Below are positions 2,977 through 26,200 of a DNA stretch of 41,123 nucleotides, piece after piece. Under the pieces are notes generated by a model. It saw only the letters and a list, made by a program, of their open reading frames with translations. It was not told the origin of the DNA and made no database searches. This stretch comes from Candidatus Parcubacteria bacterium (GTDB lineage: Bacteria; Patescibacteriota; Patescibacteriia; Patescibacteriales; UBA12075): contig JAGLPO010000034.1 of NCBI GenBank assembly GCA_023137275.1, forward strand, positions 1 through 41,123, read 5' to 3'. A program made the position numbers and the translations under genes. Every line of letters begins with the position of its first letter. Position 1 is the first letter of the stretch.

Positions 2977-3822
2977 ATGAATAAACTTATTAAGAAAATT
3001 TTGATTAAAAAGGCCTTAAAAAATCCAGAAATAGAATTAAAGAAAGAGAAAGACAAGTTGGAAATAAAAGCAGAAAAAGAAATTATGGAGTTGAAAAAAA
3101 TTCAGACGGAGAAGATGCTGCAGCTTAATCGTTTTGCTGAATTTGGCCGATTATCAAGCGGGTTTTTTCATGAATTTATAAATTCTCTAACTGCTATTTC
3201 ATTGCATATTGAGCAAGTTAAGAATGGCTCCTATAAAAAATTAAAAGAGACAAAACAATACCTGGCAAGGGCTATCAATACCTCGGAACAAATGAAAAAT
3301 TTTCTTATGATGGCGCGCAAGCGAATAGCAGCCCAGGAAGATATAAAATTATTTTCCGTAGAGGATGAAATTAAACAAGTGGTTAAAGTGCTTGCCTATA
3401 AAGCGCGCAAGGCCAATGTTTGCATTAACTTTAATCCGTCAGTAAATATTAAAATTTACGGCGACGCGATAAAATTTAGCCAGGTTGTAATTAATTTAGT
3501 ATTGAATGCCGCTGACGCGTATCCGGACGCGGATGAACAGATTGCTTCGCGCAATACAAGGCGAGAGGTTTTAATCAGTCTGGATAAAAATAAAAGCGGG
3601 TTTATACTAAATGTAGAAGATTGGGGGAGAGGTATATCAGGCGAAAATGTTCAAAAAATATTTGAGCAATTTTTTACAACCAAGGATTTTTCAGAAGGAG
3701 CGGGCGTAGGCCTTTTTTTAGTAAAAAACATTGTTGAAAAAGATTTTGAAGGCACAATTAAATTAATAAGCAATAATAAAAAAGGAACAATTTTTAGTGT
3801 TGCTATTCCGATTAAAAAATAG
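2977..3822 (+). CDS. Cytoplasmic histidine kinase with no sensor domain
   Basis: Coiled-coil N-terminus, H-box GFFHEFINSL, NLVLNAADA, DWGRGI, FFTTK, GAGVGL; no TM segment. Confidence 0.9.
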   Translation: MNKLIKKILIKKALKNPEIELKKEKDKLEIKAEKEIMELKKIQTEKMLQLNRFAEFGRLSSGFFHEFINSLTAISLHIEQVKNGSYKKLKETKQYLARAINTSEQMKNFLMMARKRIAAQEDIKLFSVEDEIKQVVKVLAYKARKANVCINFNPSVNIKIYGDAIKFSQVVINLVLNAADAYPDADEQIASRNTRREVLISLDKNKSGFILNVEDWGRGISGENVQKIFEQFFTTKDFSEGAGVGLFLVKNIVEKDFEGTIKLISNNKKGTIFSVAIPIKK

Positions 3823-3839: not shown

Positions 3840-3873
3840 CTTTACCAAAACTTTACCGTTTTTTTGTTATGAT
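3840..3873 (+). promoter_or_regulatory. Putative OmpR/PhoB-type tandem box plus extended -10 for the com-like gene
   Basis: CTTTACC at 3840-3846 and 3851-3857 (11-bp period), 10 bp upstream of TATGAT (3868-3873), which is preceded by TGn. Confidence 0.55.
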
Positions 3874-3936
3874 AAAATCAGTTGTGTAATAATTCCCGCG
3901 GTTCTGGCGGCCGCGGGGCTAACCGGCAAGGAGGCT

Positions 3937-4101
3937 ATGGCTAATTTCTTAAAAGAATATCGCTGCAAGCATTGCAATAAGCTTTTTTTTAAAGGCGATC
4001 TGCGGCATTGCGTTGTGGAAATCAAGTGCAAAAACTGTAAAAAGATCAACATGATTGAGAGAAAAAATCGCAAATTATTTTTGCTTTGCGATCAAGTATA
4101 G
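3937..4101 (+). CDS. Mu Com-family zinc-ribbon regulator, 54 aa (not in the ORF track)
   Basis: MANFLKEYRCKHCNKLFFKGDLRHCVVEIKCKNCKKINMIERKNRKLFLLCDQV; RCxxCxKL...EIKCxxCKxIN signature; SD AAGGAGG at 3928-3934. Confidence 0.85.
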   Translation: MANFLKEYRCKHCNKLFFKGDLRHCVVEIKCKNCKKINMIERKNRKLFLLCDQV

Positions 4102-4111
4102 TATTTATAAG

Positions 4112-4152
4112 AGAAGCTCATAAGAAGCTCATCAGCTATGATGAGTTTTTTT
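4112..4152 (+). terminator. Intrinsic terminator whose 5' arm is the second copy of a tandem AGAAGCTCAT repeat
   Basis: Repeats at 4112-4121 and 4123-4132; stem CTCATCA(4128-4134)/TGATGAG(4139-4145), loop GCTA, T7 at 4146-4152. Confidence 0.75.
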
Positions 4153-4183
4153 GTATTTTATGGCTTGAGTACTTTTTAATAAG

Positions 4184-4244
4184 CATTTAAGGGGCTGTTG
4201 CCTAACACTTTTTGTGTTGTTTTCCGGCGGCAGCCTCTTAAATG
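4184..4244 (+). other. Long RNA hairpin in the leader of the receiver gene
   Basis: CATTTAAGGGGCTGTTGCC (4184-4202) pairs with 4226-4244 over 19 bp, including 3 G:U pairs; inner AACAC/GTGTT stem. Confidence 0.6.
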
Positions 4245-4362
4245 GGGATTCGGGCTGTGTATTGCCAAAGATACTAAAAAGGAACTTGGGGTGATTGAAC
4301 GGTTGATCGCAATTACCAGAATTCATTGCATTGAATAATAATTTTTTTAAAAATTAACTATT

Positions 4363-4773
4363 ATGAAAAGCAATAAGAAAATAATTCTTACAATTGAAGA
4401 TGATAAGGTTTTGCGGAAATTACTTAAGGCAGAGCTTATTCGAGCGGGCTTTCAGGTTTTGGAAGCCCGCGATGGGCAGGAGGGAATAGTAATCGCTAAA
4501 GATAAACAACCCGATTTAATCCTGCTCGATTTGATGCTGTCAACAATGCCCGGTGAAAAAGTGTTAAAGGAAGTCGGTGTAAATAAATTAACCAGGAATA
4601 TTCCGGTAATAGTTTTAACGCTCAAAGCGGATGAGGCCAGTAAAATAAATTGCCAAAATATTTTGGGCGCGCGTGATTATCTGATTAAATGCGATGTTAC
4701 TTTGGATGAGGTAGTGTCAAAAATTACTCAGGAATTAAGCTTAAACCAAAAGAATGTCCGCGCTAACCAATAG
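4363..4773 (+). CDS. Single-domain response regulator (CheY-like receiver)
   Basis: IEDD, ILLDLML, VIVLT, DYLIK; no output domain. Confidence 0.92.
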   Translation: MKSNKKIILTIEDDKVLRKLLKAELIRAGFQVLEARDGQEGIVIAKDKQPDLILLDLMLSTMPGEKVLKEVGVNKLTRNIPVIVLTLKADEASKINCQNILGARDYLIKCDVTLDEVVSKITQELSLNQKNVRANQ

Positions 4774-4921: not shown

Positions 4922-7033
4922 GTGATGCTGAAAAACATATTCACAAAATATAAAAAAAATAGGGTGGTGAAAAGAGATTTTTTTCTTTTGGTTGCCGGGG
5001 CTTTTTTGTGTTTTGCGTTTTTTTTATTTTTATTTTTTACTAACGGAGTATTATACTGGCAGAATCAAAGAATATTTGAAAAAGAAATAAGGCTGGTTAA
5101 TAGTGTTTTACAGAATAGTTTGTTTCAGCTCAAAGAGCAGGCAATGGGGCTCTCTGAGTCGGAAGATATTACGGAATATATAAAAAAGAAAGATATTTTA
5201 AATCTTGTTTCATTGCTTGACGAGGAGAAAAAAAATCGCCCGTTTAAGATGATAACCGCCGTAGATAAAGACGGCATTGTCTTATCAAGAACGGAGCAAT
5301 TGTCAAGACGCGGCGACTACCTTTTTCATATCACTCCCTGGGGGCGCGTGGTTGCCGAAGGCAAAACGGTAGAAGTTATTGAGGAGGGAATTATTTCACC
5401 GCTTATTTTGATTGCCGGCCATCCGGTCGTGGATGGAGATGAATTCATTGGCGCTATGTTCTCCGGCCAGGCATTGGACGATGCTTACGCTGAACGTTTA
5501 CAGGAACAGCACCTTCATTTTGGATCTCATATAATTTTTTATTCCAGGAATGAGGGGATTATTGGAAACAGTTTTAAAAATAGCGAGACAAGAGAGCTGT
5601 TAGCGGCTAATTTTAACACCGGTTCCAACTGGATACAAAGCAATACCGGGGCCGAAGGGTACCGTTCGGTTGAAATATCAGGCAAAAAATATTTTTTGGG
5701 CAGTATTGTTTTCCCGGGGCTGGAGGAAAGCCCCGGCGGAGCATTGATTTTTTATCCGCAAGGAATTGTATCAATGAGTATCGTTCCGCCGCTTTTTTTA
5801 TCCGCGCTTTTTTTTCTGGCGCTGTTTGCGTGGCTTTACGGCAAACATCAAATAACATGCGCCAATCTTACTTACGTGGTTTCTTTTTGCTGTGTAATAT
5901 TTTGTATAACTTTTTTAACAAAAGTATTTTTATTTGACAGCCGTTTTATAAAACCGCTTTATATCAGCGGCTTGGCGGATACTATTTATAATTCAACCCT
6001 GGAACTTGAGCCGCGGTACAGTATATTTGACAAATCTTTTAATCATATTCTTGCGATCAAAATATTGCCTGGCGGCGAAGCTATTAACGCGGTACGGGCG
6101 ATTGTTCGTTATGATCCGGAGAAAATTCAGGTAGAAGAGATAATTACGTCAAAATCATTTTGCAGGCGGACAGGAGCTGATTTGTTTATTGAAAAAATTA
6201 TTGACAATAAGCGCGGCGAGGTTATTGTTTCCTGCGGCTTGCCTAATCCGGGTTTTTCGGAATCACATGGGATAGTGGCCGAGTTAGTTGTTAAGCCTCT
6301 TGAAACCGGTATTACGAATGTTAGATTTGATCAAGCCAGCCGGGTGTTGGCTAATGACGGGCTGGGAACCGATGTTCTGCGAGCGGTTACGAACGCAAGC
6401 TACTATATCGCCGATTACCAGGAGAGGAATGAAGACATTGAATTATACGAGCCTTTAATTGTTTTTTCGCCAACCCATCCCAATAGCGAGGAGTGGTATG
6501 ATAAAAAGGATGTTTATTTTTCCTGGCTTGGGAACGATCAGCTTGAATACGCGTATTTGTTTAATCAACAAGCCACGGGAACACCGGATATAAGGCAGTT
6601 TACAGAAGATAAATCATTGCGATTTAGCGTTAAAGCTGACGGTATTTATTATCTCCATATCGCGCCGGTTAAAGCCGGTATTATTGGCCCAACAAGAAAC
6701 TACAAAGTGAAAATAGATGCTACGCCGCCGCACAAGACTGATATTAGGGCAAGTGAGGTTGTTATTAAAAGCGGTGATGTGGTTAGGTTTGAATTCAGCG
6801 GTGAAGACGAGATGAGCGGTTTGCAGTCCAACTATTATTACGTGCGAATAGATAACAGTACGTTTCTGCCGACGAAGACGCCTCTGTATGTGCCGTTTAT
6901 TGAGCCGGGCAAACATCCGGTTACTGTTAGGATGTTTGACAATGCTGGAAATTTCAAAGATACTGGCGTAGAAATTGAAGTTAAGGGCAAGCCGCTTCCG
7001 GAGAAGCTTATTACTATATTCGCGCCACAGTAA
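4922..7033 (+). CDS. Membrane protein: Cache-like domain, cohesin domain and Ig-like C-terminus
   Basis: TM1, then Cache-like 'MITAVDKDGIVLSRT...LIAGHPVVDGDEFIG', two TMs, cohesin-like 'AINAVRAIVRYDP...VLANDGLGTDVL', then 'SPTHPNSEEWY' and 'DEMSGL...VRMFDNAGN'. Start is GTG 4922 or ATG 4925. Confidence 0.72.
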   Translation: MMLKNIFTKYKKNRVVKRDFFLLVAGAFLCFAFFLFLFFTNGVLYWQNQRIFEKEIRLVNSVLQNSLFQLKEQAMGLSESEDITEYIKKKDILNLVSLLDEEKKNRPFKMITAVDKDGIVLSRTEQLSRRGDYLFHITPWGRVVAEGKTVEVIEEGIISPLILIAGHPVVDGDEFIGAMFSGQALDDAYAERLQEQHLHFGSHIIFYSRNEGIIGNSFKNSETRELLAANFNTGSNWIQSNTGAEGYRSVEISGKKYFLGSIVFPGLEESPGGALIFYPQGIVSMSIVPPLFLSALFFLALFAWLYGKHQITCANLTYVVSFCCVIFCITFLTKVFLFDSRFIKPLYISGLADTIYNSTLELEPRYSIFDKSFNHILAIKILPGGEAINAVRAIVRYDPEKIQVEEIITSKSFCRRTGADLFIEKIIDNKRGEVIVSCGLPNPGFSESHGIVAELVVKPLETGITNVRFDQASRVLANDGLGTDVLRAVTNASYYIADYQERNEDIELYEPLIVFSPTHPNSEEWYDKKDVYFSWLGNDQLEYAYLFNQQATGTPDIRQFTEDKSLRFSVKADGIYYLHIAPVKAGIIGPTRNYKVKIDATPPHKTDIRASEVVIKSGDVVRFEFSGEDEMSGLQSNYYYVRIDNSTFLPTKTPLYVPFIEPGKHPVTVRMFDNAGNFKDTGVEIEVKGKPLPEKLITIFAPQ

Positions 7034-7272: not shown

Positions 7273-7310
7273 TATAGCACATTCTATAGAATGTGCTATA
7301 GAATGTGCTA
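7273..7310. repeat. Perfect 28-bp palindrome with a 12-bp tandem duplication of one arm
   Basis: TATAGCACATTCTA|TAGAATGTGCTATA at 7273-7300; TAGAATGTGCTA at 7287-7298 and 7299-7310. Confidence 0.85.
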
Positions 7311-7334
7311 TGTTATTAATATGGACGAGCATCC

Positions 7335-8633
7335 CTATTTTAATAAATCATCCAATTCGCAGCTTAGTAAAGATGATTTATTAAGTAAAATTTGTTCTTT
7401 TTGGTTTAGGTTATCCGCGGTCATTCTGATGAGTTTAGTTGTTATTGCGCTGCCAATCATTATGCGTTCTGTCTTTTTTAAATAATTTTCAGTTTTTTTA
7501 TAAAATAGCTCGGCATACCGCATTAGCTTATTCTGTGATATAGAATTCCTGTTTCGACCATTGCTATCAAATCTATAAAGTTTTTTAATTTTTTTACTTA
7601 TTTCAATTAATAAATCGCCTTCTCTGTCTTCAATCCAATAGTCACTAATGCGATAAATGATTTTTATTGATTTTCCGTCATCTGTTTTATACCAATATAC
7701 AAATGAAAATACATCGTTGTGAAAATCTTGGCGTACCCCCACTTCTTCAAGTTCAGTAACTGTATGAATTTCATACTCATCATGCAGGCGCATATAGCTT
7801 TCGCGCCAGTTATTAAGCCAATTTTGGATATATGTCTGATCGATAAATAATGGAGTGAGATCCTGTTTAAGGTTTTCATCCATCCCTTTATCATTCAAGA
7901 TGTTTATCGTGATTTTATCAAAAAGCGTCCGTAAATCTTTTGCCTCTTTTACATTTTTAGCTTTAAGATAATCAAGATCAGGAACTATTTTTTTTCTCAT
8001 GTACCACAGTAGATCATAGATATCACGGCCTTTATGGCCGTATATTTTTTCACCTACCCCGCGCGGCCCGCGCAAGAACACAGCCGCGATTTTACTTGCC
8101 ATAAGCGCGGACATATTGTAGGTTTTTATAACAAAAGAGAGCTGATACTCATTTTGCGGCCAACGTTCTGTTACTATCCTGGGACGCGCGGCAAAGTGGT
8201 TGAGATCAATTTTAATGTGTATCTGCTTTGAATGAAAACCCAAATTTAGTTCTTCTCCTATAAGGAACTTTAATGTAAGGCCTCTGTTGTTCGTGGTTCC
8301 AATTGTGAGTAAATTAGAATTAACGCCATAAGTATTCTTAAAATGTTCTATTATTTCATCTTTTAGTTTATTCAGAAAGTCATTAGTGATTTCGTTGTCC
8401 ACTTCAAAATCCAAATCAACCGACATACGATCAAGGTCGTGGCAAATACGAAGCGTAGAACCGCCATACATGATCCAATTACTGTATTTTGGATGGTGAT
8501 ATATAAAATTAAGTACGTAATATTGCAGAGCCTCCTTAACCGCGTTTCTTTGAACATCAGGACCGATTTCGCCATAGGACGTGGAAATTTCTTCCAGCCT
8601 TTTTTTAAGTGTTGCAAGTATTTGATTATTCAT
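7335..8633 (-). CDS. AbiEii-family nucleotidyltransferase toxin (type IV TA) with C-terminal extension
   Basis: MYGGSTLRICHDLDRMSVDLDF, KIAAVFLR and KGRDIYDL motifs; directly downstream of the antitoxin gene. Confidence 0.9.
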   Translation of the reverse strand: MNNQILATLKKRLEEISTSYGEIGPDVQRNAVKEALQYYVLNFIYHHPKYSNWIMYGGSTLRICHDLDRMSVDLDFEVDNEITNDFLNKLKDEIIEHFKNTYGVNSNLLTIGTTNNRGLTLKFLIGEELNLGFHSKQIHIKIDLNHFAARPRIVTERWPQNEYQLSFVIKTYNMSALMASKIAAVFLRGPRGVGEKIYGHKGRDIYDLLWYMRKKIVPDLDYLKAKNVKEAKDLRTLFDKITINILNDKGMDENLKQDLTPLFIDQTYIQNWLNNWRESYMRLHDEYEIHTVTELEEVGVRQDFHNDVFSFVYWYKTDDGKSIKIIYRISDYWIEDREGDLLIEISKKIKKLYRFDSNGRNRNSISQNKLMRYAELFYKKTENYLKKTERIMIGSAITTKLIRMTADNLNQKEQILLNKSSLLSCELDDLLK

Positions 8634-8634
8634 A

Positions 8635-9246
8635 TTACGTATAGTCTTTTATCATTCTATAAAATTTTTTTTGCTCTATTTTATCCATTTCAATAATATC
8701 AATCCGCAATTCTTTTATTAACAAATCAACATTCTTAAGATCTATATTTCTAAACTGCCTGGTTTTAAAGTAGAGCATGTCAAAGAGAGCTTTCGCGGGT
8801 GTTGCTATAAAGAATTCAAATTTATTTTTTACTAAAGAAAAATCTGAAAATAGGCCTTTTTTAACAGATTGATAAGAAAAAGCGCCTATTTTTGTTTTGT
8901 AATTTCTGGTGACTTTCGGCGTGACAGATGTAATAGTATGTATTGCCTCGGTGGCTAGATTATAATATTGTAGAGCGGTCCAGGAACTTACATAAGATGG
9001 TTTGCGAACAATGTTTGCAAGAAAAAACAGGTAGGAAGTATTACCTTTATTTTTAAGATAAAAATCAGCGGGTACGTATAGCCCATTTTTGAGCTGAAAA
9101 ATATCTTTGCGCTTCAAAGAGCGGCTGATATAAGAATCAACCGTAGTGTTTTTAAGGTTAAATTGTTCGCTAAGTTGACTTATGGCCTTTTTGTCAAAAA
9201 AGGGGAGTGGTTTAAGCTGATTTAGCAATATTTCTCTATATTTCAT
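8635..9246 (-). CDS. AbiEi-family antitoxin / transcriptional regulator
   Basis: LKNGLY, PSYVSSWTALQYYNL, ITSVT, IATPAKALFDMLY; 1 nt from the toxin start. Confidence 0.88.
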   Translation of the reverse strand: MKYREILLNQLKPLPFFDKKAISQLSEQFNLKNTTVDSYISRSLKRKDIFQLKNGLYVPADFYLKNKGNTSYLFFLANIVRKPSYVSSWTALQYYNLATEAIHTITSVTPKVTRNYKTKIGAFSYQSVKKGLFSDFSLVKNKFEFFIATPAKALFDMLYFKTRQFRNIDLKNVDLLIKELRIDIIEMDKIEQKKFYRMIKDYT

Positions 9247-14246: not shown

Positions 14247-17200
14247 ATGCTTGAGAAGATTAAAAGTTTATACAAAAACAAAGCCATTCGTTTGGCAATA
14301 TTAGTCGTTGTCTTAACGGCCGTGTTCGGGTATTCCGGCGGTCGTTTTTATATTGTCAAAGCTTTTAACAGCCGGGTAAATATTTTTCCCGGCTCTTTCG
14401 CTGTTGAGCAGATTGACAATGATTTGGTCTGGGAAAATATTGAAAAATCGTTTTATCAGGATCTGTCCGGCACTGCCGAAGGAGAAGAATTTATTAAAGA
14501 AAATTCAGCCTTTATTTTGTCTGCCAAATCCTTGGAGATTTACAAAGCCGAGCCGGAATTTGCGCCGGCTGTTAGCGAGGAAGAAACAGTGGATGATTCT
14601 GCGCCAGCTGATTTGCAAGAAGAGATTCAAGACGAAGGGATTAATGAAGCAGAATTAAAGGAGCCTGAGGAAAATGACGATTTGATTGAAGAAACAATTT
14701 TGCCAGAAGAGATTGGAGAAGACGCGGGAAGCGAGTCTGGTAAAGAATTAACACCGGAAATAATTCCTTTGGAAGCGGATGAATCTCCGGAACCAACGGG
14801 AGATCCTGAGCCGGTTGAAAACAAAGACGATGTTTCTTTATTTGACCGGGTAATTCAGGGTATTAACGGCTTTATCAGTTATACCAAAGAACTGGATATA
14901 TTTGGCTTTAAACTGGCCCGGGCCCAGGACGATAGCGCTGATTTTGTTGAGCCAAAGGCTCAATATACGCTTTTAAATCAGAATATAATATTCTCGGACT
15001 TTAGCGTACCGATTGAATATACGGAAAATAATCTGGCGCAAATAAATTTACGTTTATCTTTAGCCGCTTACAGCGAATATATTAACGATCATATATTACT
15101 GGAATATTCAATAAATAACGAGTGGCATTCTTTGGATGAGATCAGCTTAAATGAGAGAATATCCAACCGGCTTAATAACGATTATTTGCTGTATGATCTT
15201 TCTGAAAATATGAACTGGGAAGATCTGGATGATTTAAAAGTAAAAGTTAATTATTTAAATAATGACCTGGTAAGCGATGAAGATGATAAAGAGCTGGAAA
15301 TTTTTCTTGACGCTATCTGGCTGGAAGTGGATTATAATGATCCTGCAATGGAAACAGAAAACATAAGTGAAGGGAAAGTACTTGGAGCGGAAGAAGAGAG
15401 TGAAAATAACAAGAAGTATGAGTTTAAATTATTATCAGATAAGACTGACTTTGAATCATCGGAAATGCCAAATTTTAATTTCCGCATTCAAAAAAAAGAA
15501 AATTTATTGCAGCAATTATTAACCGAAATTACCCAGACATTCAGGGATGAATATAAAATTCTTAGCATGTCAGCCAAACTGCTAAATGAAGATGGCAGTG
15601 AATACGAAGACGCGGCCTTGCGCGTGAATTATTTAAAAGACGGAGAATTTGAGGTTAAATATGATAAATTGTTGCGGAAATTCAAGCCTGGAAAAAATAA
15701 AATTATAATATCAGTTAGGGAAGGGACAGAGCAATATATTTTTTCCCAGGATTTTACCTGGGGAGTATTGGCTTTAAATACTAACAAGTCCATTTATTCT
15801 CCCAAGGAAGACGCTTATCTGCAAATGGCGGTTTTGGATGATAATGGCAATACCTTGTGCGCGGTTAACGCTCTGACATTGGAAATTCGCGATCCAATCG
15901 GCCAAATATCTTATTTAACGCTTGATAATGGAAAAATAATCGCTAACCCGGAGTGCGGACCCAATAATGTTATTGACAGCCCGGATTTTTACGGTTATTA
16001 CCGGCTTGATGTTCCGGGCCGCTATGAGCTGATCCTTAAAGCAGACACGGATAATGGCGAGCGAGAGATCAGCGATTTTATAGAAGTCCATGAGGCCGTG
16101 CCGATCGCGATTGAACGAATCGGCCCGACCAGGATCTATCCGCTGGCGCGATACGCGATGCGGTTTAATATTACTCCGACCATTGATTTTGAAGGTGAAT
16201 TCAAAGAGATCGTGCCAAATGTTTTTATTGTAAAAGCGCCATCAGGCAGAATAACAAGCGGCCAGGAAGGGGAGAATATTATCAGCTGGCAGGTTGATTG
16301 GTCGGCCGGCAGAACATATGAACTTTCTTATGTTTTTGACGCTCCGGATATAAGCCCGGAATTTTATTTATTAGGTCCGGCCAAGGCTGGCGGCCGGGGC
16401 ACTTTTCTTCTGGCAGACTCGTTAATTAAAGAGGCTTTAATTCAAAAAGAAATCAGGCAATGGCAAATCGCGTCTGATGATCTAACGATTTTATTTACCA
16501 AGGATTCAACAACCGCTAACGATTATAATACAACCGAAGAAACTTTGCTTTCTTTGTCAGGCTTTGATAGCGGAGAAACCTATATAATATTCGGCGGAGT
16601 CGGCAGCAGCCGCTATGACGGCGCGTCAAACCGCAACGAGATCGGCTTATCCATCCAGGCCAATGAAACCCATCTCCCTAACCTGAACGAATTTGTGGAA
16701 GGTCCGCGGTCCGATGACGGAGCTTCGGTGTTTATGATGGGCAAGCGCGAGTGGGACACCGAGACCTTATATTTAAGGGCTGACAGCACCGCTACGGCCG
16801 ATGCCGAGGATTATTTCCTTATGGCCATGGCCACTTCCACCATGGGAACTTATGGCCAGGATTATTTTTGGAATGATCATATTAACACCGCTGATTTGCC
16901 AGCCAACCCAACGTTCAGCGAATACGCGTCCACTACTTTTCTCTCGGACGGAAGCAGTGAATATCTGGTTATCGGCGTTATGGAAGCGGCCGTTGACGCT
17001 GATAGCCAATGGATTGAAATGGATATTTATAACGGAAGCGCGTCCATGGTTGAGCATGTCCGGGACGCCGAAGACATAGCTGACACGATCCAACTTTTTG
17101 CCGCCACTTCAACCAGGCCAACGGCCGGCACAACCACGATCTCTATCCGGGGCAGGGCATCGGCCGGCACGACCGGCGACCATTTAAGTTCGCGAATACT

Positions 17201-20200
17201 GATCATTAGAATGAATTATTATAAGGATTGGTCCTGTTCCGGTTCAAGCGCCGCCGGAGCGATTAACACGGCTCCGGCAGTAATTAATTCCACCAGCCTT
17301 CAGCTTAGTTCGCCCGGAGACGTGGTAGCGCTTTATTACGGGGCTTTTTCTTCTACTGATATTGGTTCCGGCGTTTCGGCCCGGGCTCGTTTTGACTCAA
17401 CGGTCCAGTACCAAATTACCGAGGATGACCCGAATAACGGGCCGGGCCGGATCCATGTCTGGAATACGACTGATGTCCACCCCACTTTGTGGTTTGACGA
17501 AATTACCGTAAGCGATACTGACTCCCATACTTATGATTTTTCTTATGAGCGCCAATCCGTTATTGGCGCCAGCTACGAGCAGTCTTTGATATGCGTTTGG
17601 GGCAAAGCGCCGGCCGAGGATGTATCAGTCAGCGCCACCGGCACCCAGATATTTTCTATTTTAATACCCACCAGCAACGTGGAAATGAACGCTAAATTCG
17701 TGCTTACGGACAACACCGGCTCGCATAATATAAACAGCATTATTATTACGGAAAACGGCACAATAGATGCCGGAGAGTATTTGGAAAATGTCCGCCTTTA
17801 TTATGAATTAGACACAACAGCGCCGTATGATTGCGCCGGAGAATCTTATGGCGGCAGTGAAGAGCAATATGGAGCGACTTCAACAGGCGGCTTTAGCAGC
17901 GCCAACGGAACAGCTGTTTTTAGCGAAACCGTTGGCATTAGCACCACGTCCACAATGTGCGTATATACTGTTTTAGACGTAATTGTTGGAGCGGCTGACA
18001 ACAGTACTTTGGAAATTAAGATTGATGATCCGGTTAATGAAGTTGATATTAATATTGGCATAGTCGGACCATCAACGGGCGTGGACCTTCCAGGCACTAC
18101 TCAGCTTACAGCGCCGGCAGTTACTGCAATAGTTGATGAACAGCGTAAAAGCGATAATTCCACGCTTATTTCCAACACCAATTGGACTGATGAAAATGAA
18201 GTTTATTTATCAGCTTTTGCCTATAGTTCAATTTCAGCCACTACTTCGGAGTTTGATTATTATTTTGAACTGCTTACCGAGAACGGGACTTATACCACTG
18301 CCACCACTGTTCCGGCCGGCCCCTGTGTCAGCGGCACGGCTTATGGTAGCTGCGGCAGCAATATATGGACCGGAATTGCCAGCGCGACCTCCTGGTACGA
18401 CACTAACTGGGTTTACCGCAAAAAGATCACGATTTTTGCTTCCCAGGTTGTTGCCACGGCTGATGACTTTGTGGTTTTGGCCACTACTACTGACGCGAAT
18501 CTGGCTTACACTTCAAATGGCGGCCATATGGCCTCTTCCTCCGGAGCCGATATGTTGATAGCTGATGCCTTTGGCAACAAACTTGATTATGAGCGGGAGT
18601 ATTATAGTTCATCAACCGGCGAGATCGCTATATGGATTCAGCTTGATATTTCCTCAACAACCAATCAGGAAATATATTTATATTACGGTAATTCCACGGT
18701 TAGCAAAGACCAGGCCACCACTACCGGGGTTTGGGACAGCAGCTACAAGGCGGTCTGGCATTTGGCCGAAAGCGGAACAGGAGCGGCCGGAGAATATCTT
18801 GATTCCACTGTTAACAGCTACCATGGCCAGGGCGGAACCAGTGTTGGCGGTGATAATTGCGACCCGCCAACCCGGGTTAGCGGTTTAGCCGGATACGGGC
18901 AAAGCTTTGACGGGGATTCGGATAACTTTGGCCTTACACCGGATGTTGGCCTGGACGTATTTGGCAGTGATTTTACTCTTGAAGCCTGGACGCTTCTGGA
19001 CACGACTGATAATGGCGTTATATTGGACGCATTGCCAGGGCCCAATACCCGCCTTAATTTTTCGCATGATGGGGCTGACGGCTGGACATATAACAGCCGT
19101 TCCGGAACAATAGCCACTTATATTGTTGAATCAGCCAACACCACCGATATTAACGAGTATCATCATATTGTTTATACCAGATCCGGCAATGATTATATTG
19201 TTTATTTGGATGGAGCAGTATTGGCAACCAACACAAACGCAATTGCTCCTCCGGCTGACAGTGACTGGTCATTCGGGCATCGGCGGGAGAGCCGTATGAG
19301 TTTGACCGGGGATTTGGATGAAATACGGGTTTTAAGCGTGGCTCGGACACAGGAGTGGATCCAGACCGAATTTAACAATCAATCAAATGTAAACAGTTTT
19401 ATGAGTTTTGGCAATGAGGAGTCTTCCGGAATCGCGCTTACTGCCGGCGAAGCAAATATAAGCGGCATACCGGATAGGGGCACGGTGGCCGGACAGGGTT
19501 ATAAGTGGCAGGTATTAGCTTGCAATGATAATGATTATTGTTCAAATTGGGCGCGATTTAACTCTACATTGCCGAATTTCAAAGTTGATGATACTTCGCC
19601 AACCGCTCCGGGAAATTTAGTTCTTGCTACCACGACCGCGACCACTATCCGATTAGATTTCGGTTCCCAGAGTTCGGATGATAATTTTGACCGCTACCGT
19701 ATGTTTTATAAAGTGGGTATTTCGGAAGTAAGCCAAAACGATATTGAGCACAATGACAGTAATTTACTTTCAGCTGATTATAGTTCAGCCACTTCAACCC
19801 TGATAACCAATTTGGATTCGGCCACTACTTATGTTATTAATATCTGGGCCTATGATGACGCGGGAAATTATACCAGCGCATCGGAAATTGTTGTTACCAC
19901 TGCCTCGGCGCCGCATGCCAGAGCGCGCAGTGTTCAATTTTTGGCCGGCAATTATAGCGCCAACGGCTCATCCGGGCAGCTGTCCAACACTAATCAAACT
20001 TTTAACGCCTTTGCTCTTGAACTGGCCGAAACCGAGGCGCAGATCAGGAATGCCTATCTTATTTTTGAGACTCAGTTTGAGGCGTACCATGTTAATTCAG
20101 GCGATTATATCGGCTATGAACTGGCCTTTGATGTTTGCGAAGAACCGTGTTCGGCCGACGCCTTTTTTGGAACAGGCCGGATCTTGACAGATGATAACAC

Positions 20201-23200
20201 GGCTTTGGTTTATAATGAAGCCGGCGGCAATCAGGCGCGGATTCTAATGGATGTGACGAGCGAAGCTGAATTATTCGCCTATAAAGGCGATGGAGCTGAT
20301 CTGGAAGCTCAGATAGGCTATCGTTTGGAAACTGACACGGCAACCACGTCAATTGCCGGCGCCAAAGCGATATTGGTTGTGACTTATTCTTTTAATGATG
20401 ATAATTCCAGCAACTATACCAATACCGTGATCTATCCTTTGGAATCAACCGCTTCGGGTGATAGCGGCACCAGGCGGGCCAGCACAACGGACAACTGCAT
20501 TAAAACCCCGGATGGCTCGGCCAATTGCCCGATTTTTAATTATAATATGAATATCCCGGAATTTAACGCTAAGCTTTCGCAGTGGTTTGAGATCTTTGGC
20601 GTTAACGACCTGCATGGAGCTAATGATGTATTGGCTAATGTTAATATTGAGGGCGTTAATATTAATAGCAATTCATTTTATCATGAAGCCGCCAATAACG
20701 GGGAGCAAAGCAATTTGCCGCGGCTAATTTTTAATAATGTGTCCGGTTTTTCCGAAAGCACGGCCCAGGCTTTGGAGGCTTATTTTTTTGGCCAAGGCAG
20801 CGGACGATACTATCTTTTGGGCGGGGAAGTGATAGAAACCTATACGGCCGCTAAATCAGCCGGCACAAAAACCAGAACTGTTAGTTTCCCTATAGGAGCG
20901 CTTACCAACGGCCAGAGCATGTCCACGGCCAGCAGTTCCGTTGATGTGTATTTTCCGGAGAACGGATCCGGCGTTGGAGTGGTAAATATTGAAAAAGCCT
21001 GGCTGCGAATAGTGAGCAACAATTACAATAGCGGCGACCGCACTTTAACTGTTTCTTCAAAAGTCGGAGACAATACCCAATCATCAAATTATATTTACGA
21101 TCTAAACACCGGCACTGACGTAATAAATCCGGTTTATCGCGTGGTTCATATAATCCCAGGCGGGGATTATAGCGAACTGGAAAGCGCGAATGCCGCCAGC
21201 CCCAAGGCGGTTACGGCATATACCACTAATAGCTCGCTGGAACAAGGCGGCGTATCAGTTGAGCTGATGATCACCTATACTTACACGGATGAATCAAGCG
21301 GCTATTTGTCAGCATTAAGCTTGTATGGCGGGCAATCTGATGTTAACGGCAATTCGCAAAACGATATTGAAACAATAGCTAATTTGGTTTTTCCCGAGCT
21401 TCGGGGAGATGAGACCATAAGGGCGGCCGGCCTTACAACCAGTTATTTATTCAGTGATAGCGACGGTGATATGCCCGGTGTTTGGTTTTCCCTGGGTTCT
21501 AATATCGCTACCTCCAGTCCGATTTGCACCAGCACTTATTATCATAGAAGCGATGGTATTAACAGTTTTGGCGAAATGATAGAAAACGTAAGCTCTGTTC
21601 TAAGCGCGAATGACAATGAATCATATTCTGCCTGTTATTCAAACGCTAACGGATCATCCCTGACAGCCGGAGCAAAGATGAACGCGATCCTTAATTATGT
21701 ATATCAATGGGACGCTCCGCCGCCGGTATTGACCCAGAATGACTGGCGCTGGTATGAAGAAGAGGATGGAGTTACCCCGGACACTCCGCTGGCTGATGAA
21801 AATGCGGTGATCTCCAATGTTAACATCGGTGATAACGCGCGTTTGCGCATGAATATCGGCGTATCAAGCGATAATATGGCGACCTCCACTCAAACTTTTA
21901 AGCTGCAGTATGCCACTACAAGCGATTGTACATCAGCTAGCGAATGGACCGATGTTGGCGGCTTAGCCGGTAATTTACCCTGGCGCGGATATAATAATCC
22001 GGATCCGATTGACGGCGCAACGCTTGATTCAGTGTTATTATCATCTTCCACGCGCTCGGAATCTTATGAAGAAGAAAATCCCTCGGCCGGCAACCCCAGG
22101 GGCGTGGTTGTCGGCGGTTTTGGCGAGTGGGATTGGACACTTTATAATAATAGCGCCACTTCAAGCCAGTCTTATTGTTTTCGCATGGTGTTTAGCGACG
22201 GAACAGCGTTAAATGATTATTTATCCGACTCATACCCCAAGCTTACTACGGCGCCGGACAATTCTTCGTCCGAAGACCCGGATTCGCTTGGCCAATACCG
22301 GAACGATGATCAAAGCGTGATAAGCAATTCCGGATGGATAAATACAGACACAATTGATTTGAACGCGAAAGCGACTGATCCGAATTTAAACGAGATTATT
22401 ACTCTTTATTTTGAAATAGCTTCTACGTCCGATTCTTTTACAACCGCCACTTCGGCGCCGAGCCAGGCTTGTTTAAGCGGAACCAACTGGAATTCCTGCT
22501 TAAGCAAGGTTTGGGCCGCTTCTTCCACTGCCGGGGATTACCGCACGGTTCCTTTTTCCGGCACTACGACCATTGCCGGCTTGCCTGATTATGCCGTCGG
22601 GTATAAATGGCAGGTCCTGGCTTGCGACGATAGCGGAGAATGTTCCGACTGGGTTAAGTACAATTTAACAACACCGAACTTTAAGGTTGACACTGTTGCT
22701 CCGGATGCTCCGGGCAATATGATTTTTGCCACTTCCACTCCAACCAGCATAACTTTGGCCTTGGGCGCTTCCACTACGGAAGATAATTTTTACCGTTACC
22801 AAGTATTTTATCGGGCCGGTATTTTTGGGGTAAATGAAAATGACGATGAACATGCTGATAATAATTTTAATTTTCAGGATTATAACAGCGCTACTTCAAC
22901 CTTGGTTATTAATCTTTCGGCCAACACGGAATATGTATTTAATATCTGGGCCTATGATTTGGCCGGGAATTCAGCCAGCGCTACGGTAGAGGTGGTGGGA
23001 ACCACTACCTCGGCCTTTAATCCGCCAACCGGTTTTATTTCTTCGGTTGACCAAAGAACTGACGGTTCCGGCATAGTTGACGTAATTATTTTGGTTAATG
23101 ATCCGGACAACGATGATCAGGTTAGAGCCAGAATTATGTACGTATCAGGTGGTAGTTGTGATCTTACCGCTCCGCTTGACCCCAGCCTGGACGAAACAGG

Positions 23201-26200
23201 CGCGAATATTTGGGCCACTTACGGCGACCCGGATATTGATAATGACCACTATTATCAAGTCGGCACCTCAACTAGCTGGATCATAACCTCGCCGGGCCAA
23301 AATTATGTTTTCTTTGATTGGCAAGCGTATTTGGATGAGCCGGATGCTAACGGTGATTATTGTCTGGGCTTGGTGGTTAATGACGGCGGGTTTGACCAGG
23401 TCGCTACCCATACTCTTGATTTTACATTAGATAATGTTGATCCGGCGATACCCGGCAATTTAACTTTTGATTCAAAGAGCTATAATAGCGTAACTCTTGA
23501 TTTTAGCACATCCAGTAGTGACACTAATTTTGACCAATACATAATTTATTACAAAAAAGGCATAAGCGGCGTTAGCGAAACTGATACGCCTTTTGATAAA
23601 GATGACGATTCCAATCTTGATTTTGTAAATTACGGTACGGCCGCCACTACCACGATCATTGGCCTTGATCCTGACACTGATTATGTTTTTAATATTTGGG
23701 CCTATGATGTTTATGGCAACGCAACCAGTGCTTTAGTGGAGCTTACAGCAAAAACCAACGCTCAGCCTGTTAATATTTCAGCGGATGAGCAGTACCTGGA
23801 CGACGGTTTTACCGTGATTTCAAACAATACCTGGATTAACGAAAATAATGTAATACTTCAAGCCTCGGCTCATGACCAGGACGCGACTGACTCAATTACT
23901 TTTTACTATGAGGTACTAACCGCAACTGGCACTTTTAGCATTGCTACAAGCGCGCCAGGCGATTATTGCGCTTATTCCACGGCCTATTTGTCGTGCGATA
24001 ACAATATCTGGGGCGTTTCCACCAGCACTTCCAATCTGCCAAGTGATTGGTATAGTGAAGATTGGTTATTTCGTAAAGCAATTACTATAAATTCCAGCCA
24101 GGTCGCTACTAGCGTTGGCGCGATGCCGATTTTGGCCACCACAACCGACGCTGATCTGGCGGCCAGGGCCAGAAGCGATGCGTATGATATATTGTTTACT
24201 GATTCAGACGGCATTACCAAGATCCCTTATGAGCGCGAGTATTATAATTCCGGCACCGGCGAGCTAACGGCCTGGATAAAGACCGCTGTTTCTTCAACAA
24301 CAGACAAAGTGATCTATATGTATTACGGCAACGCGGCCTCAGACACGGATCAGGCAACTACGACCGGGGTCTGGGATATTGGCTACGCAGGCGCCTGGCA
24401 TTTGAGCGAGAATGTAGTGGATGAAAGCTCCTGGGTAAACGCACATTTGGACTCCGGCACTTACGGCAATGACGGCGATCAATATGGCAATAACGAAATG
24501 CCAGGACAAATTTATCGCGGTCAGGAATTTGACGGCATTGATGATTATATTGATATTGGCAATACCAACAATACCATTAACGGGGCGGCTTTCTGGATCA
24601 AGGCTGATTCTCTTACCCAGGATATTATGGACTTTGATAATGGCACGCATACGATCGCGCTAACCAACGGCGTTTTAAGCGCGCCCGGATTTGTCAGCCC
24701 AACATTTTACGTTGACGGGATTGCCACCACCACGCTGGACACGGGCTGGCACCACGTAATAGCCGCAACCGACACCGGATTTAGCGCCAGCGACTTTGAT
24801 ATCGGACGGATTAACACAAGCTATTTTGACGGTTTGATTGATGAGGTTCGTCTTTTAAGCGTTAGCCGCGGCATTGGATGGGCAAGCACGCAAGCCAATA
24901 ACCAGCGTGATGTTGATAGCTTTCTTGGTTTTGGAAGTGAAGAGTTGGCAATTTCTTTTTATGAAACTATGCTGGTAATTACTGTTCCGGATAATCCCGA
25001 CTACGCCAGCGGATATAAATGGCAGGCCATGGCTTGTGATGATGATAATGACTGCACTGTTTGGGATGAGTTTAATTCAACTACGCCGAATTTTAAAATT
25101 GACACTACCTTGCCCGGCGCTCCGGGACAATTAAGCGAAGATTCCAAGACCTCAAATACTATTACCCTGGCCTATGGGGCGGCTGCTAATGAAGATAATT
25201 TTGTTGAATATAAAATATACTATTCAACCACTTCGCCGGTATTTGAGACTGATATTGAACATAATGATTCTGATCTGGGCGATCAATATTACAATAGCGC
25301 CACTGACACAACCGTAACCGGTCTGAATCCGGATACCACTTATTATTTTAATATTTGGGCTTATGATATTGTCGGCCATACAACCAGCTCTACTCCAGTA
25401 TCAATAACTACTAATAATGCCCAATCATCTCCGGGCGCGGCTTTTTACACCAAAAATACCCGGGTGCTTTATTATCGGGTTTGGGATGGAGTAAATTGGG
25501 GAGCGGAACAAGCCGGCCCGACACTGGGCAGCGATGTTGGCGATAATATCCGGCATATCCGAACGCAAAGAAGCGACGATGGCGGCAAAGTAGGCATATT
25601 AATAAAAACCTGGGATGGAACCAATCAGGAATGGTGGGGCGCTGTTTATCGCTACGCGGCTAATGATTTTATCAGCGCATCATCTTTGGGCTCGGCGCAA
25701 TCATCAACTACAAATAATCAGCTTTTAACCGCTTGTATTGCCGCCTTGTCTGACGATGAATTTATAGTTGTACGCAATAATAATGCGTCAGACGGGACTT
25801 TGATATTTTCTTGGAACGGTACGGACGAATGGGTAAACGAAGGAGCCGGACCAAATCCAAGCGCGGTCATGAACGGCTGCGCGCTTGAACGCCGGCCCGG
25901 TACTGACAACTATTTGCTTCTTACCTTTGATGATGATGGCGACACGGGCACGGCCTATTATTACGGCGGTTCAAGCTATACTGACTCATGGACAGTCTGG
26001 AGCCAGCATTCAGGAGACGAGGAAGATATTGATAATTATGTTGGCCAGGCCTTTTTTGACCCAAGCGACAATACCCAGGGCGCGTTCAGCTATTCCAACA
26101 GTACTGTTAATAATTACGCTTATGCCAAGTATTTTCTCTGCGACAACACTTCAATTAATTTTGGCGCTCCGGTTGCCGGCCCTGGCTCAGCTCCGGATGA

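Follow-up and report, generated by a model that had tools for sequence, protein, structure and literature searches.

The DNA considered here, referred to as the window, is a stretch of 41,123 nucleotides (nt) from Candidatus Parcubacteria bacterium (contig JAGLPO010000034.1 of assembly GCA_023137275.1, positions 1 to 41,123 of the forward strand). On its plus strand it carries a small open reading frame (ORF) resembling the gene for Com, an RNA-binding zinc-ribbon protein of phage Mu, followed by a pair of short repeats, the second of which forms the base of a hairpin of the intrinsic-terminator type. Together, the com-like gene and this RNA element are interpreted here as a putative protein-RNA switch acting on transcription termination.

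The com-like ORF occupies positions 3937-4101 (ATG at 3937, TAG at 4099-4101) and encodes a protein of 54 amino acids (aa), MANFLKEYRCKHCNKLFFKGDLRHCVVEIKCKNCKKINMIERKNRKLFLLCDQV, with a Cys4 zinc ribbon composed of C10, C13, C31 and C34. Ten bases further (4102-4111), the sequence AGAAGCTCAT appears twice, at 4112-4121 and 4123-4132, with a single A (4122) between the copies. The core of each copy is GAAGCTC (4113-4119 for repeat 1 and 4124-4130 for repeat 2), and the two cores are set apart by ATAA. The second copy enters a 7-base-pair (bp) hairpin made of CTCATCA (4128-4134), the loop GCTA and TGATGAG (4139-4145), directly followed by T7 (4146-4152). The original prediction, drawn from the letters alone, had described a 54-aa Com-like ORF, a repeat starting 10 nt after its stop, and a second copy serving as the 5' arm of a 7-bp hairpin before seven T residues, and all of these features are present as described. 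In the ViennaRNA fold the stem reaches 11 bp (4124-4134 with 4139-4149), as the GAAG of repeat 2 pairs with the U-tract; the minimum free energy is -17.6 kcal/mol (z -2.42), a value that 1 of 200 shuffled sequences attains. The energy of the terminator-like hairpin at 4124-4152 is -12.7 kcal/mol. The window thus contains a stable stem-loop with a U-tract directly after it, the arrangement of an intrinsic terminator, and termination at this site is predicted. The same two repeats could also pair with each other: AGCU of repeat 1 (4115-4118) would form the 5' arm, and AGCU of repeat 2 (4126-4129) the 3' arm, of a proposed antiterminator mini-hairpin with the loop C-AUAA-GA (4119-4125).

The 1.46-Mb genome contains a single exact tandem GAAGCTC-N1-8-GAAGCTC and no instance of the reversed pattern that served as a control. 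Two covariance models were built for the element: R1, which acts mainly as a sequence profile and from which the locus counts and the alignment derive, and R2, in which the structure register is corrected. Each recovers this site alone in the genome, R1 at 43.3 bits (next best 16.7) and R2 at 46.3 bits (next best 20.7), and in the searches of this genome and of the phylum the two give the same picture; the E-values of such short covariance models are rough. A generic terminator scan, in comparison, was not above chance (6 sites versus 4.9 +/- 2.9 expected). A chance origin of the element was considered and rejected in view of the genome-unique tandem, the specificity of the covariance models, the density of the motif after com, and the behavior of a structural descriptor relative to shuffled sequences, the last two of which are described below. 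No Rfam 15 family matches the window at its gathering threshold, and none was matched at E<=1 in eight element-bearing loci.

The window protein hits the Pfam family PF10122 (Zn_ribbon_Com) with an E-value of 0.0022 and 17.9 bits, short of the gathering score of 22.9. When family representatives were scanned singly, 52 of 65 matched PF10122 at E<=0.01, the best at 9.6e-8. A word-indexed protein search returned eight relatives, one of which is an NCBI 'hypothetical protein' of Candidatus Parcubacteria bacterium and two of which carry the JGI name 'phage FluMu protein Com', while an exhaustive search of cluster representatives yielded 114 proteins at E<=1e-3. The residues kept across the family follow the pattern KEYRC..C.KL.FKG....EIKC..C, and C10, C13, C31 and C34 show little or no variation in sets of 9 and of 65 relatives. 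The family is characterized by an N-terminal Cys4 zinc ribbon, CxxC-(17)-CxxC, in proteins of approximately 45-110 aa, and the AlphaFold model of the window protein shows a ribbon of four beta-strands with a predicted local distance difference test score of 83.2. A sequence-profile search of the PDB returned generic zinc ribbons only (E>=0.21), and a Foldseek comparison of the AlphaFold model with the PDB gave no match at E<=0.001, the best being the ZitP zinc finger at E 1.6, so that this model-based comparison is of no help on family membership. The com gene is single-copy in its own genome (the next tblastn E-value is 0.03), and none of 50,697 phage records gave a tblastn match to the protein at E<=0.01. 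The window protein is treated as a divergent Com-family zinc ribbon.

Members of this family differ in what follows the ribbon. Most Com homologues adjacent to nrdD (e.g., L020, L029, L035 and L047) bear a C-terminal extension with a second cysteine motif, C-x4-5-CP.R. The longer among the closest relatives of the window protein (L053-L059) have a CxxC...C cluster instead, and the Com proteins of the window and of its closest relative, locus L006, end before either motif. In addition, the Com zinc ribbon serves as the N-terminal domain of larger proteins of approximately 160-280 aa in L013, L026, G057 (L134 2244-3086, minus strand) and G027 (L133 5632-6141).

To place the element in a wider context, loci with Com relatives were collected from species-representative genomes (47) and metagenomes (70), which left 100 unique loci, the window included, after duplicates were collapsed. 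Their labels name Parcubacteria, Saccharibacteria, Paceibacterota, Uhrbacteria, Kaiserbacteria, Moraniibacteriota, Andersenbacteria and others, and some are labeled 'uncultured Gammaproteobacteria'. A recurrent order was observed in the 110 nt past the com stops: GAAGCTC, a spacer of 2-5 nt, GAAGCTC, a variable stem-loop whose 3' arm ends in GAG(C/T), and a T-run. With up to one mismatch allowed in each half, the strict tandem motif is found in the first 250 nt after com in 39 of the 100 unique loci (24,377 nt), as compared with 31 matches on both strands of the remaining 814,560 nt, several of which are further real elements. The covariance-model search covered 93 unique loci, again including the window, and left out seven loci (L113-L122) with weak protein matches of 17 residues. 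At E<=1e-3, 46 of the 93 loci yielded a total of 55 elements, 54 of them on the com strand; 40 lie within 150 nt past the com stop, eight at 151-700 nt and three within 150 nt upstream of com, and loci carry one element in 39 cases, two in five and three in two. Across the element-bearing loci the Com proteins are 40-82% identical to that of the window, and GAAGCUC is nonetheless kept. The original prediction had staked itself on a repeat-plus-terminator architecture with covariation downstream of Com homologues; the architecture recurs at these 46 loci, and covariation is present in both helices.

The terminator helix is paired in 94.7% of 486 alignment cells, 42 of which are changed on both sides, and none of 500 shuffles reaches this level; registers slid relative to it are paired in at most 61% of cells. 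Its inner pairs vary as expected of a helix, with AU 24, GC 15 and UA 3 at one position and CG 21, UA 9 and AU 8 at another. A U-run of at least five is present in 49 of the 55 elements, and the median terminator energy is -11.2 kcal/mol. The repeat-to-repeat helix, in which AGCU pairs with AGCU, is paired in all 220 cells without a mismatch, which is likewise reached by none of 500 shuffles. Its compensatory changes consist of AU to GC in three elements and UA to CG in five: a repeat 1 of the form GAAGCCC goes with a repeat 2 of the form GAGGCTC in five elements and GAGGCTC with GAAGCCC in three, and five further elements have wobble pairs. Since these variant repeats are unlike each other yet complementary, an RNA helix is favored over two equivalent binding sites. 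Wherever position 6 of repeat 2 is C, it faces a G in both helices.

The same conclusion is approached through a descriptor free of any fixed core (GA-x4-Y-N1-8-GA-y4-C, with x4 and y4 complementary and a terminator built on the second half). On the com strand it has 55 matches, spread over 44 of the 100 unique loci, as compared with none on the opposite strand and 0.2 for each shuffled replicate. Among the cores recovered are AGCU/AGCU (31), GGCU/AGUC (5), AGCC/GGCU (4) and GGCU/AGCC (4), along with single cases of fully swapped cores, namely GACU/AGUC, GGUC/GACC, AGUC/GACU and GUGC/GCAC. With a loop of 5 nt in 35 of the 55 elements (7 nt in the window), the mini-hairpin has a median energy of -2.3 kcal/mol. 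Because repeat 2 belongs to both, the terminator and the mini-hairpin exclude each other; two conserved helices therefore share one strand, as is characteristic of a switch.

The coupling between element and com was examined in 151 genomes drawn evenly from the phylum of the window, in which the RNA model and a Com protein profile were searched separately. R1 (E<=1e-3) and the Com profile (E<=1e-4) each match six genomes, and these are the same six (G000, G138, G027, G057, G078 and G144), belonging to five genera; related genomes in this sample are not independent of one another. R2 gives seven matches of at least 29.4 bits, all within the same six genomes. The element lies within 100 nt of com in G138, G078, G144 and G057. 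The gene order in the first three is com, element, nrdD, with an activase-like gene after nrdD in G138 and G078. In G057, elements flank the gene for a 280-aa protein with an N-terminal Com domain: one is just upstream, and the other is downstream, ahead of the gene for a 615-aa secreted protein. The G027 element stands before a secreted-protein gene, and two receiver genes are found within the 4.6 kb that separate it from the gene for a 169-aa Com-domain protein. In the genome of the window itself, neither com nor the element was found outside the window by tblastn, the tandem pattern, R1 or R2, and nrdD is located on another contig. As a control, viral contigs were searched, and the bare pattern GAAGCTC-N2-5-GAAGCTC was found in more than 119 stretches; R2 matched none of the 80 viral loci listed at 29 bits and three at 25.7-27.4 bits, which have no Com relative at E<0.04. 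The bare repeat alone is thus common by chance in very large collections.

The gene most often found downstream of the cassette is nrdD, which encodes the anaerobic ribonucleotide reductase. Taking the first plus-strand ORF of at least 120 aa that starts within 800 nt after com, NrdD is found in 19 of 29 loci with the strict motif, nine of which also match the ATP-cone family, and in 8 of 33 loci without it, several of which carry a degenerate element; two more of the latter encode flavodoxins. In 19 of 21 nrdD loci, the ATG of nrdD is positioned 3-30 nt past the hairpin in A/U-rich sequence, with no Shine-Dalgarno sequence seen in between, and in the other two the distance is approximately 150-160 nt. 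With no room for a promoter between hairpin and nrdD, the gene in the 19 loci could be expressed only by transcription through the hairpin. In the subfamily to which the window belongs, recognized by an FFKGDL motif (L006, L007 and L053-L062), com is separated from the elements by 60-110 nt. The elements there often come as two or three in a row, and they precede secreted or membrane proteins without a Pfam family. Four of these proteins are interrelated, and those of L056 and G057 match the last ~300 residues of a 5,462-aa ORF in the window. The original prediction had placed the unit in a cellular signalling locus; signalling genes do flank com in the window, but the cassette is widespread and its commonest downstream gene is nrdD.

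Taken together, these comparative data are best read as a Com-dependent antiterminator/terminator switch, to which a probability of about 60% is assigned. The cassette would consist of two parts, a Com-family zinc-ribbon RNA-binding protein and its cis-acting RNA target directly downstream. In one fold, the AGCU cores of both GAAGCUC repeats would pair to give a weak 4-bp hairpin, GA-AGCU-C(N2-5)GA-AGCU-C; in the other, repeat 2 would form the base of a stable hairpin before the U-tract and hence an intrinsic terminator. Without protein, the terminator would be expected to prevail (about -11 versus -2 kcal/mol). Com bound to the small hairpin would keep repeat 2, the part of the terminator next to the U-tract, out of the terminator, allowing RNA polymerase to read through into the downstream genes, expected to be a receiver and a dCache gene in the window and nrdD in most other loci. 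Where the start codon follows the hairpin directly, as in the nrdD leaders, an A/U-rich ribosome landing site would be freed as well, so that a translational effect of the Mu type may be added. The conserved architecture, the two helices and the genomic linkage to com are established computationally; we infer that Com is the binding factor, that its binding relieves termination, and which genes are downstream in the window. Com acting on the repeat to block the terminator had been the core of the original prediction; the placement of repeat 2 in the terminator stem stands, but the repeats are probably the two arms of a mini-hairpin and not two single-stranded sites.

Upstream of com in the window, on the plus strand, are a GAF histidine kinase (61-2223), an OmpR-type response regulator (2273-2953) and a short histidine kinase (2977-3822). 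Locus L006, the closest to the window with 82% protein identity, has the same order of histidine kinase, OmpR-type regulator, short kinase and com, and shares the promoter region. A promoter-like site of com is located at 3864-3893 on the plus strand (TTGTTA, an 18-nt spacer and a TG-extended AATAAT; 9 of 12 consensus matches) and its sequence is kept in L006, although the consensus promoter scan as a whole was not above chance. Its -35 region is abutted by a pho-box-like direct repeat, CTTTACC-AAAA-CTTTACC (3840-3857, plus strand; 7+4+7 with an 11-bp period), which is also kept in L006; the exact form is unique in the genome, and forms with one mismatch are no commoner than a control. This repeat is a possible binding site for the adjacent OmpR-type regulator, of which com may be a target, in which case a cascade would run from kinase to regulator to com to read-through. 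The com leader (3895-3934, plus strand) contains a GC-rich hairpin, CCCGCGG (3895-3901) with CCGCGGG (3911-3917), and the Shine-Dalgarno sequence AAGGAGG (3928-3934). A 33-nt stretch of the window (3900-3932), which includes most of this hairpin and most of AAGGAGG, is absent from L006, where the -10 box almost adjoins the ATG and the com mRNA may be nearly leaderless. L006 has two elements, and that of the window is nearly identical to the second; the window thus seems to have lost the first element plus the intervening sequence relative to L006.

Downstream of the element, the spacer before the receiver gene contains a long, near-perfect extended hairpin (4159-4262, plus strand), which is single-copy in the genome, has a start partly kept in L006 and has no Rfam match. 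The region 4100-4365 folds at -80.8 kcal/mol as compared with -56.6 +/- 4.2 for shuffled sequences (z -5.81). Two candidate downstream genes follow on the plus strand, a stand-alone receiver-domain protein of 136 aa (4363-4773; Pfam Response_reg, E 2.6e-18) and a membrane protein of 703 aa (4922-7033; Pfam dCache_3, E 1.1e-9), residues 429-496 of which resemble the gene adjoining com in L007 (43% identity over 68 aa, E 4e-13). Further away, the 5,462-aa ORF (14247-30635) has a GC content of 0.45-0.49 versus 0.31-0.39 in its flanks, and its resemblance to the L056 and G057 secreted proteins found after Com elements amounts to 28% identity (E 1e-16 to 3e-18). On the minus strand, an ORF for a nucleotidyltransferase toxin of the AbiEii type (7335-8633, 432 aa, E 2.8e-21) and a 203-aa ORF without a Pfam match directly upstream of it, spanning 7335-9246 as a pair, probably constitute a type IV toxin-antitoxin system. 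A 17-bp terminator-like hairpin formed from repeated TATAGCACATTCTATAGAATGTGCTATAG (7273-7312) lies after the dCache gene and stops short of the 3' end of the AbiEii ORF (7335). The stretch is present in six DNA runs from three studies, all labeled as cold seep metagenome, one of which (X1) may be its source; no RNA run is recorded as containing it.

Several observations weigh against the antitermination switch. That a hairpin with a U-tract terminates transcription in these organisms is an assumption carried over from other bacteria. The AGCU core is palindromic, so that identical repeats pair automatically and the informative portion of the repeat-to-repeat helix comprises the 8 double-change cells, the 5 wobble cells and the variant cores; the related sequences of the elements, moreover, are not independent events. 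The mini-hairpin is approximately 9 kcal/mol weaker than the terminator, a difference for which protein or folding kinetics would have to compensate. No element was detected by the covariance model at E<=1e-3 in 47 of the 93 unique Com-homologue loci, and the score of the window protein on PF10122, 17.9 bits, lies below the gathering score of 22.9. In the phylum sample, R2 also matches G106, which has no Com match, at 28.0 bits (E 8.3e-4), and ten more genomes at 23.6-27.1 bits (E<=0.01). Three of these weak matches were inspected and rejected as real elements, the first being half of the motif, the second a piece of coding sequence (EAREAR) and the third a lone repeat; no Cys4 ORF was found near them. 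In the closest subfamily (L006 and L053-L061), a -10-like sequence is located between com and the elements, and Com would act there on a separate transcript. In the window itself, the receiver gene begins 210 nt past the U-tract, behind the strongly structured spacer, and a weak promoter-like match is found at 4313-4342; the receiver and dCache genes may accordingly have their own transcription, and read-through into them is the least secure step in the window.

Among the rival explanations, control of translation alone, as in phage Mu, is unlikely. Under this scheme the hairpin would inhibit translation, the U-tract would act as a ribosome landing site, and Com would melt the hairpin, as Mu Com does as a translational activator in the text of Nowacka et al. 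2019 (PMC6483171). The scheme gains from the nrdD loci, where the start codon of 19 out of 21 is so close to the hairpin in an A/U-rich leader devoid of a Shine-Dalgarno sequence, and there a translational mechanism may operate alongside antitermination. However, the start codon is never inside the hairpin, the U-run of at least five in 49 of 55 elements abuts the stem in the manner of an intrinsic terminator, and the distance to the next start codon, 100-560 nt in the window and its closest relatives, is too great for masking. A switch of the opposite sign, in which Com or another factor promotes termination or represses, for example by blocking a competitor structure at repeat 1 or by stabilizing the terminator, is less probable still. 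The sign of regulation in the antitermination switch is itself deduced, and TRAP-like repeat-binding proteins that favor termination do exist; but besides the repeats, nothing conserved that could pair with the 3' arm of the terminator was seen in the alignments, read-through alone can express the gene in nrdD loci, and with a terminator far more stable than the alternative fold, a factor would be needed for turning expression on rather than off.

A passive role for the element, in which a conserved terminator cassette moves together with com, any factor recognizing it is something other than Com, and the conservation reflects recent descent or mobility, appears improbable to about the same degree as the reversed sign. 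The constant association of element and com in the phylum sample would suit a single mobile unit, as would the sporadic occurrence of the cassette (5 of 150 other sampled genomes in the phylum). Against this, GAAGCUC persists at element-bearing loci whose Com proteins are only 40-82% identical to that of the window, variation is free in the inner stem and spacer but not in the repeats or in their ability to pair with each other, and a plain gene-end terminator leaves elements in series of two or three and upstream of com unexplained. Recognition of the direct repeats in double-stranded DNA, by the OmpR-type regulator or by Com, is very improbable. Short direct repeats are typical of response-regulator sites and two-component genes flank com in the window, L006 and G027; nevertheless, the elements keep to the com strand (54 of 55), the opposite strand has no match to the descriptor, variant repeats remain complementary rather than identical, repeat 2 is always embedded in a hairpin with a U-tract, and most loci, being of the nrdD type, have neither two-component genes nor room for a promoter downstream.

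The presence of a Cys4 zinc site before an oxygen-sensitive enzyme invites a redox or zinc hypothesis that goes beyond the antitermination switch. Com fingers might represent a cellular class of signal-responsive antiterminators in Patescibacteria, in which the finger would bind the hairpin only when reduced and zinc-loaded, the second cysteine motif (C..x..CP.R) would contribute in nrdD-linked members, and transcription of nrdD, the gene for the oxygen-sensitive class III ribonucleotide reductase, and of surface-protein and signalling genes in other lineages, would require permissive redox or metal conditions. This extension is speculative and, on the present comparative evidence, rather doubtful. 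If it were true, it would provide the first RNA-protein switch defined for the phylum and the first non-phage function of Com, in a group whose gene regulation is almost unexplored because the organisms are mostly uncultured. If the antitermination switch itself is true, the Com family would grow from a single phage translational activator to a family of cellular antiterminators, the switching-on of nrdD in many of these genomes would be explained, and a very small protein-RNA switch would become usable as a tool. The cassette of com, 7-nt repeat pair and terminator is compact (~250 nt), portable and testable in a heterologous host, and the covariation yields explicit predictions for mutagenesis. 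Judging by the titles of papers, Mu Com and its hairpin have already been used as a tool.

The protein family and the type of RNA site are known, and what is new is the putative termination output, the cellular genomes and the downstream genes. A search of the literature in full text, with supplements and most subscription journals outside its scope, found no Com homologue in connection with nrdD, terminators or Patescibacteria; the main text of a 2017 catalogue of 224 RNA motifs (PMC5737381), the supplementary motif lists being outside, makes no mention of such terms, and the passages matched in PMC13551039 have no bearing on the subject.

Mu Com is the closest known system. In the text of the Nowacka et al. 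paper (PMC6483171), Com is described as binding a short hairpin that adjoins the translation-inhibition structure of mom; systematic evolution of ligands by exponential enrichment gave a bipartite motif flanking a variable stem of 3-4 bp, GA dinucleotides are protected by Com, the C-terminal tail is dispensable for binding, and the native mom 19-mer reads GA-AUGC-CUGCGA-GCAU-CCC. This 19-mer folds at -2.4 kcal/mol, as compared with the median of -2.3 for the elements described here. The two sites share the succession of GA, a 4-bp stem, a loop starting with C and ending in GA, the second arm and C, and both are bipartite or repeated and stand beside or overlap a stable inhibitory hairpin. On the protein side, both systems have a small N-terminal Cys4 zinc ribbon, encoded immediately upstream of an RNA target, which is predicted in the present case. 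The elements thus have the features of a cognate Com site, that is, a short GA-presenting hairpin, overlapping a terminator, downstream of com and supported by covariation, and binding by Com is predicted. The differences are that the core here is GAAGCUC with a U-A closing pair, whereas that of Mu is GAG(N)2CC with a C-G closing pair (PMC6483171); that the inhibitory hairpin here is a terminator with a U-tract, whereas that of Mu, in the same text, is a stem holding the start codon; that nrdD, secreted proteins, or receiver and dCache genes are downstream instead of mom; and that the host is cellular, apparently Patescibacteria. The window thus lacks the Mu-type arrangement of a mom start codon inside a melted stem in a phage, as its next start is 210 nt from the hairpin and no mom is present.

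Viral contigs offer some intermediate arrangements. Downstream of the 44-aa com of L257 (1986-2230) are a Mu-type hairpin, GA-UAGC-CUAGA-GCUA-CC, and GAGAGCC repeats. A hairpin with U7 begins, on its 5' arm, with the last of these repeats, and after it come GGAGG and the start codon (ATG) of an ORF of 640+ aa. This single case suggests that phage Com proteins may act on terminators too. In L258 and L259, motifs resembling GAG(N)3-4CC (GAGCGCGCC, GAGTGGCC and GGAGCCGCC) are clustered right after the com stop, with no T-run.

Other regulators resemble the proposed switch in target or in logic. NrdR, to which the control of ribonucleotide reductase genes usually falls in bacteria, combines a zinc ribbon with an ATP-cone and is a DNA-binding repressor that acts at promoters through NrdR boxes. 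It has been called the master regulator of the ribonucleotide reductase network in the abstract of a preprint (bioRxiv 10.1101/2025.03.28.645925). The control of nrd genes would be common to both, whereas the element here is a strand-specific structured RNA within a transcript and the protein has no ATP-cone. TRAP, HutP and PyrR are small proteins that read a short repeated motif in leader RNA to choose between terminator and antiterminator. Unlike the present system with its two mutually pairing 7-nt repeats, these proteins form oligomeric rings or have a phosphoribosyl pyrophosphate (PRPP)-transferase fold, and they recognize many triplet repeats or a single hairpin. In the antiterminators BglG, LicT and SacY, which bind RAT sites, the protein stabilizes a weak antiterminator hairpin, the 3' part of which overlaps the 5' arm of an intrinsic terminator in the leader. 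Those proteins are of the CAT-PRD type, respond to phosphorylation by the sugar phosphotransferase system and bind an unrelated RNA; in the cassette described here, the same antiterminator/terminator logic would be carried out by a zinc ribbon of ~40 residues, usually encoded just upstream on the same transcript.

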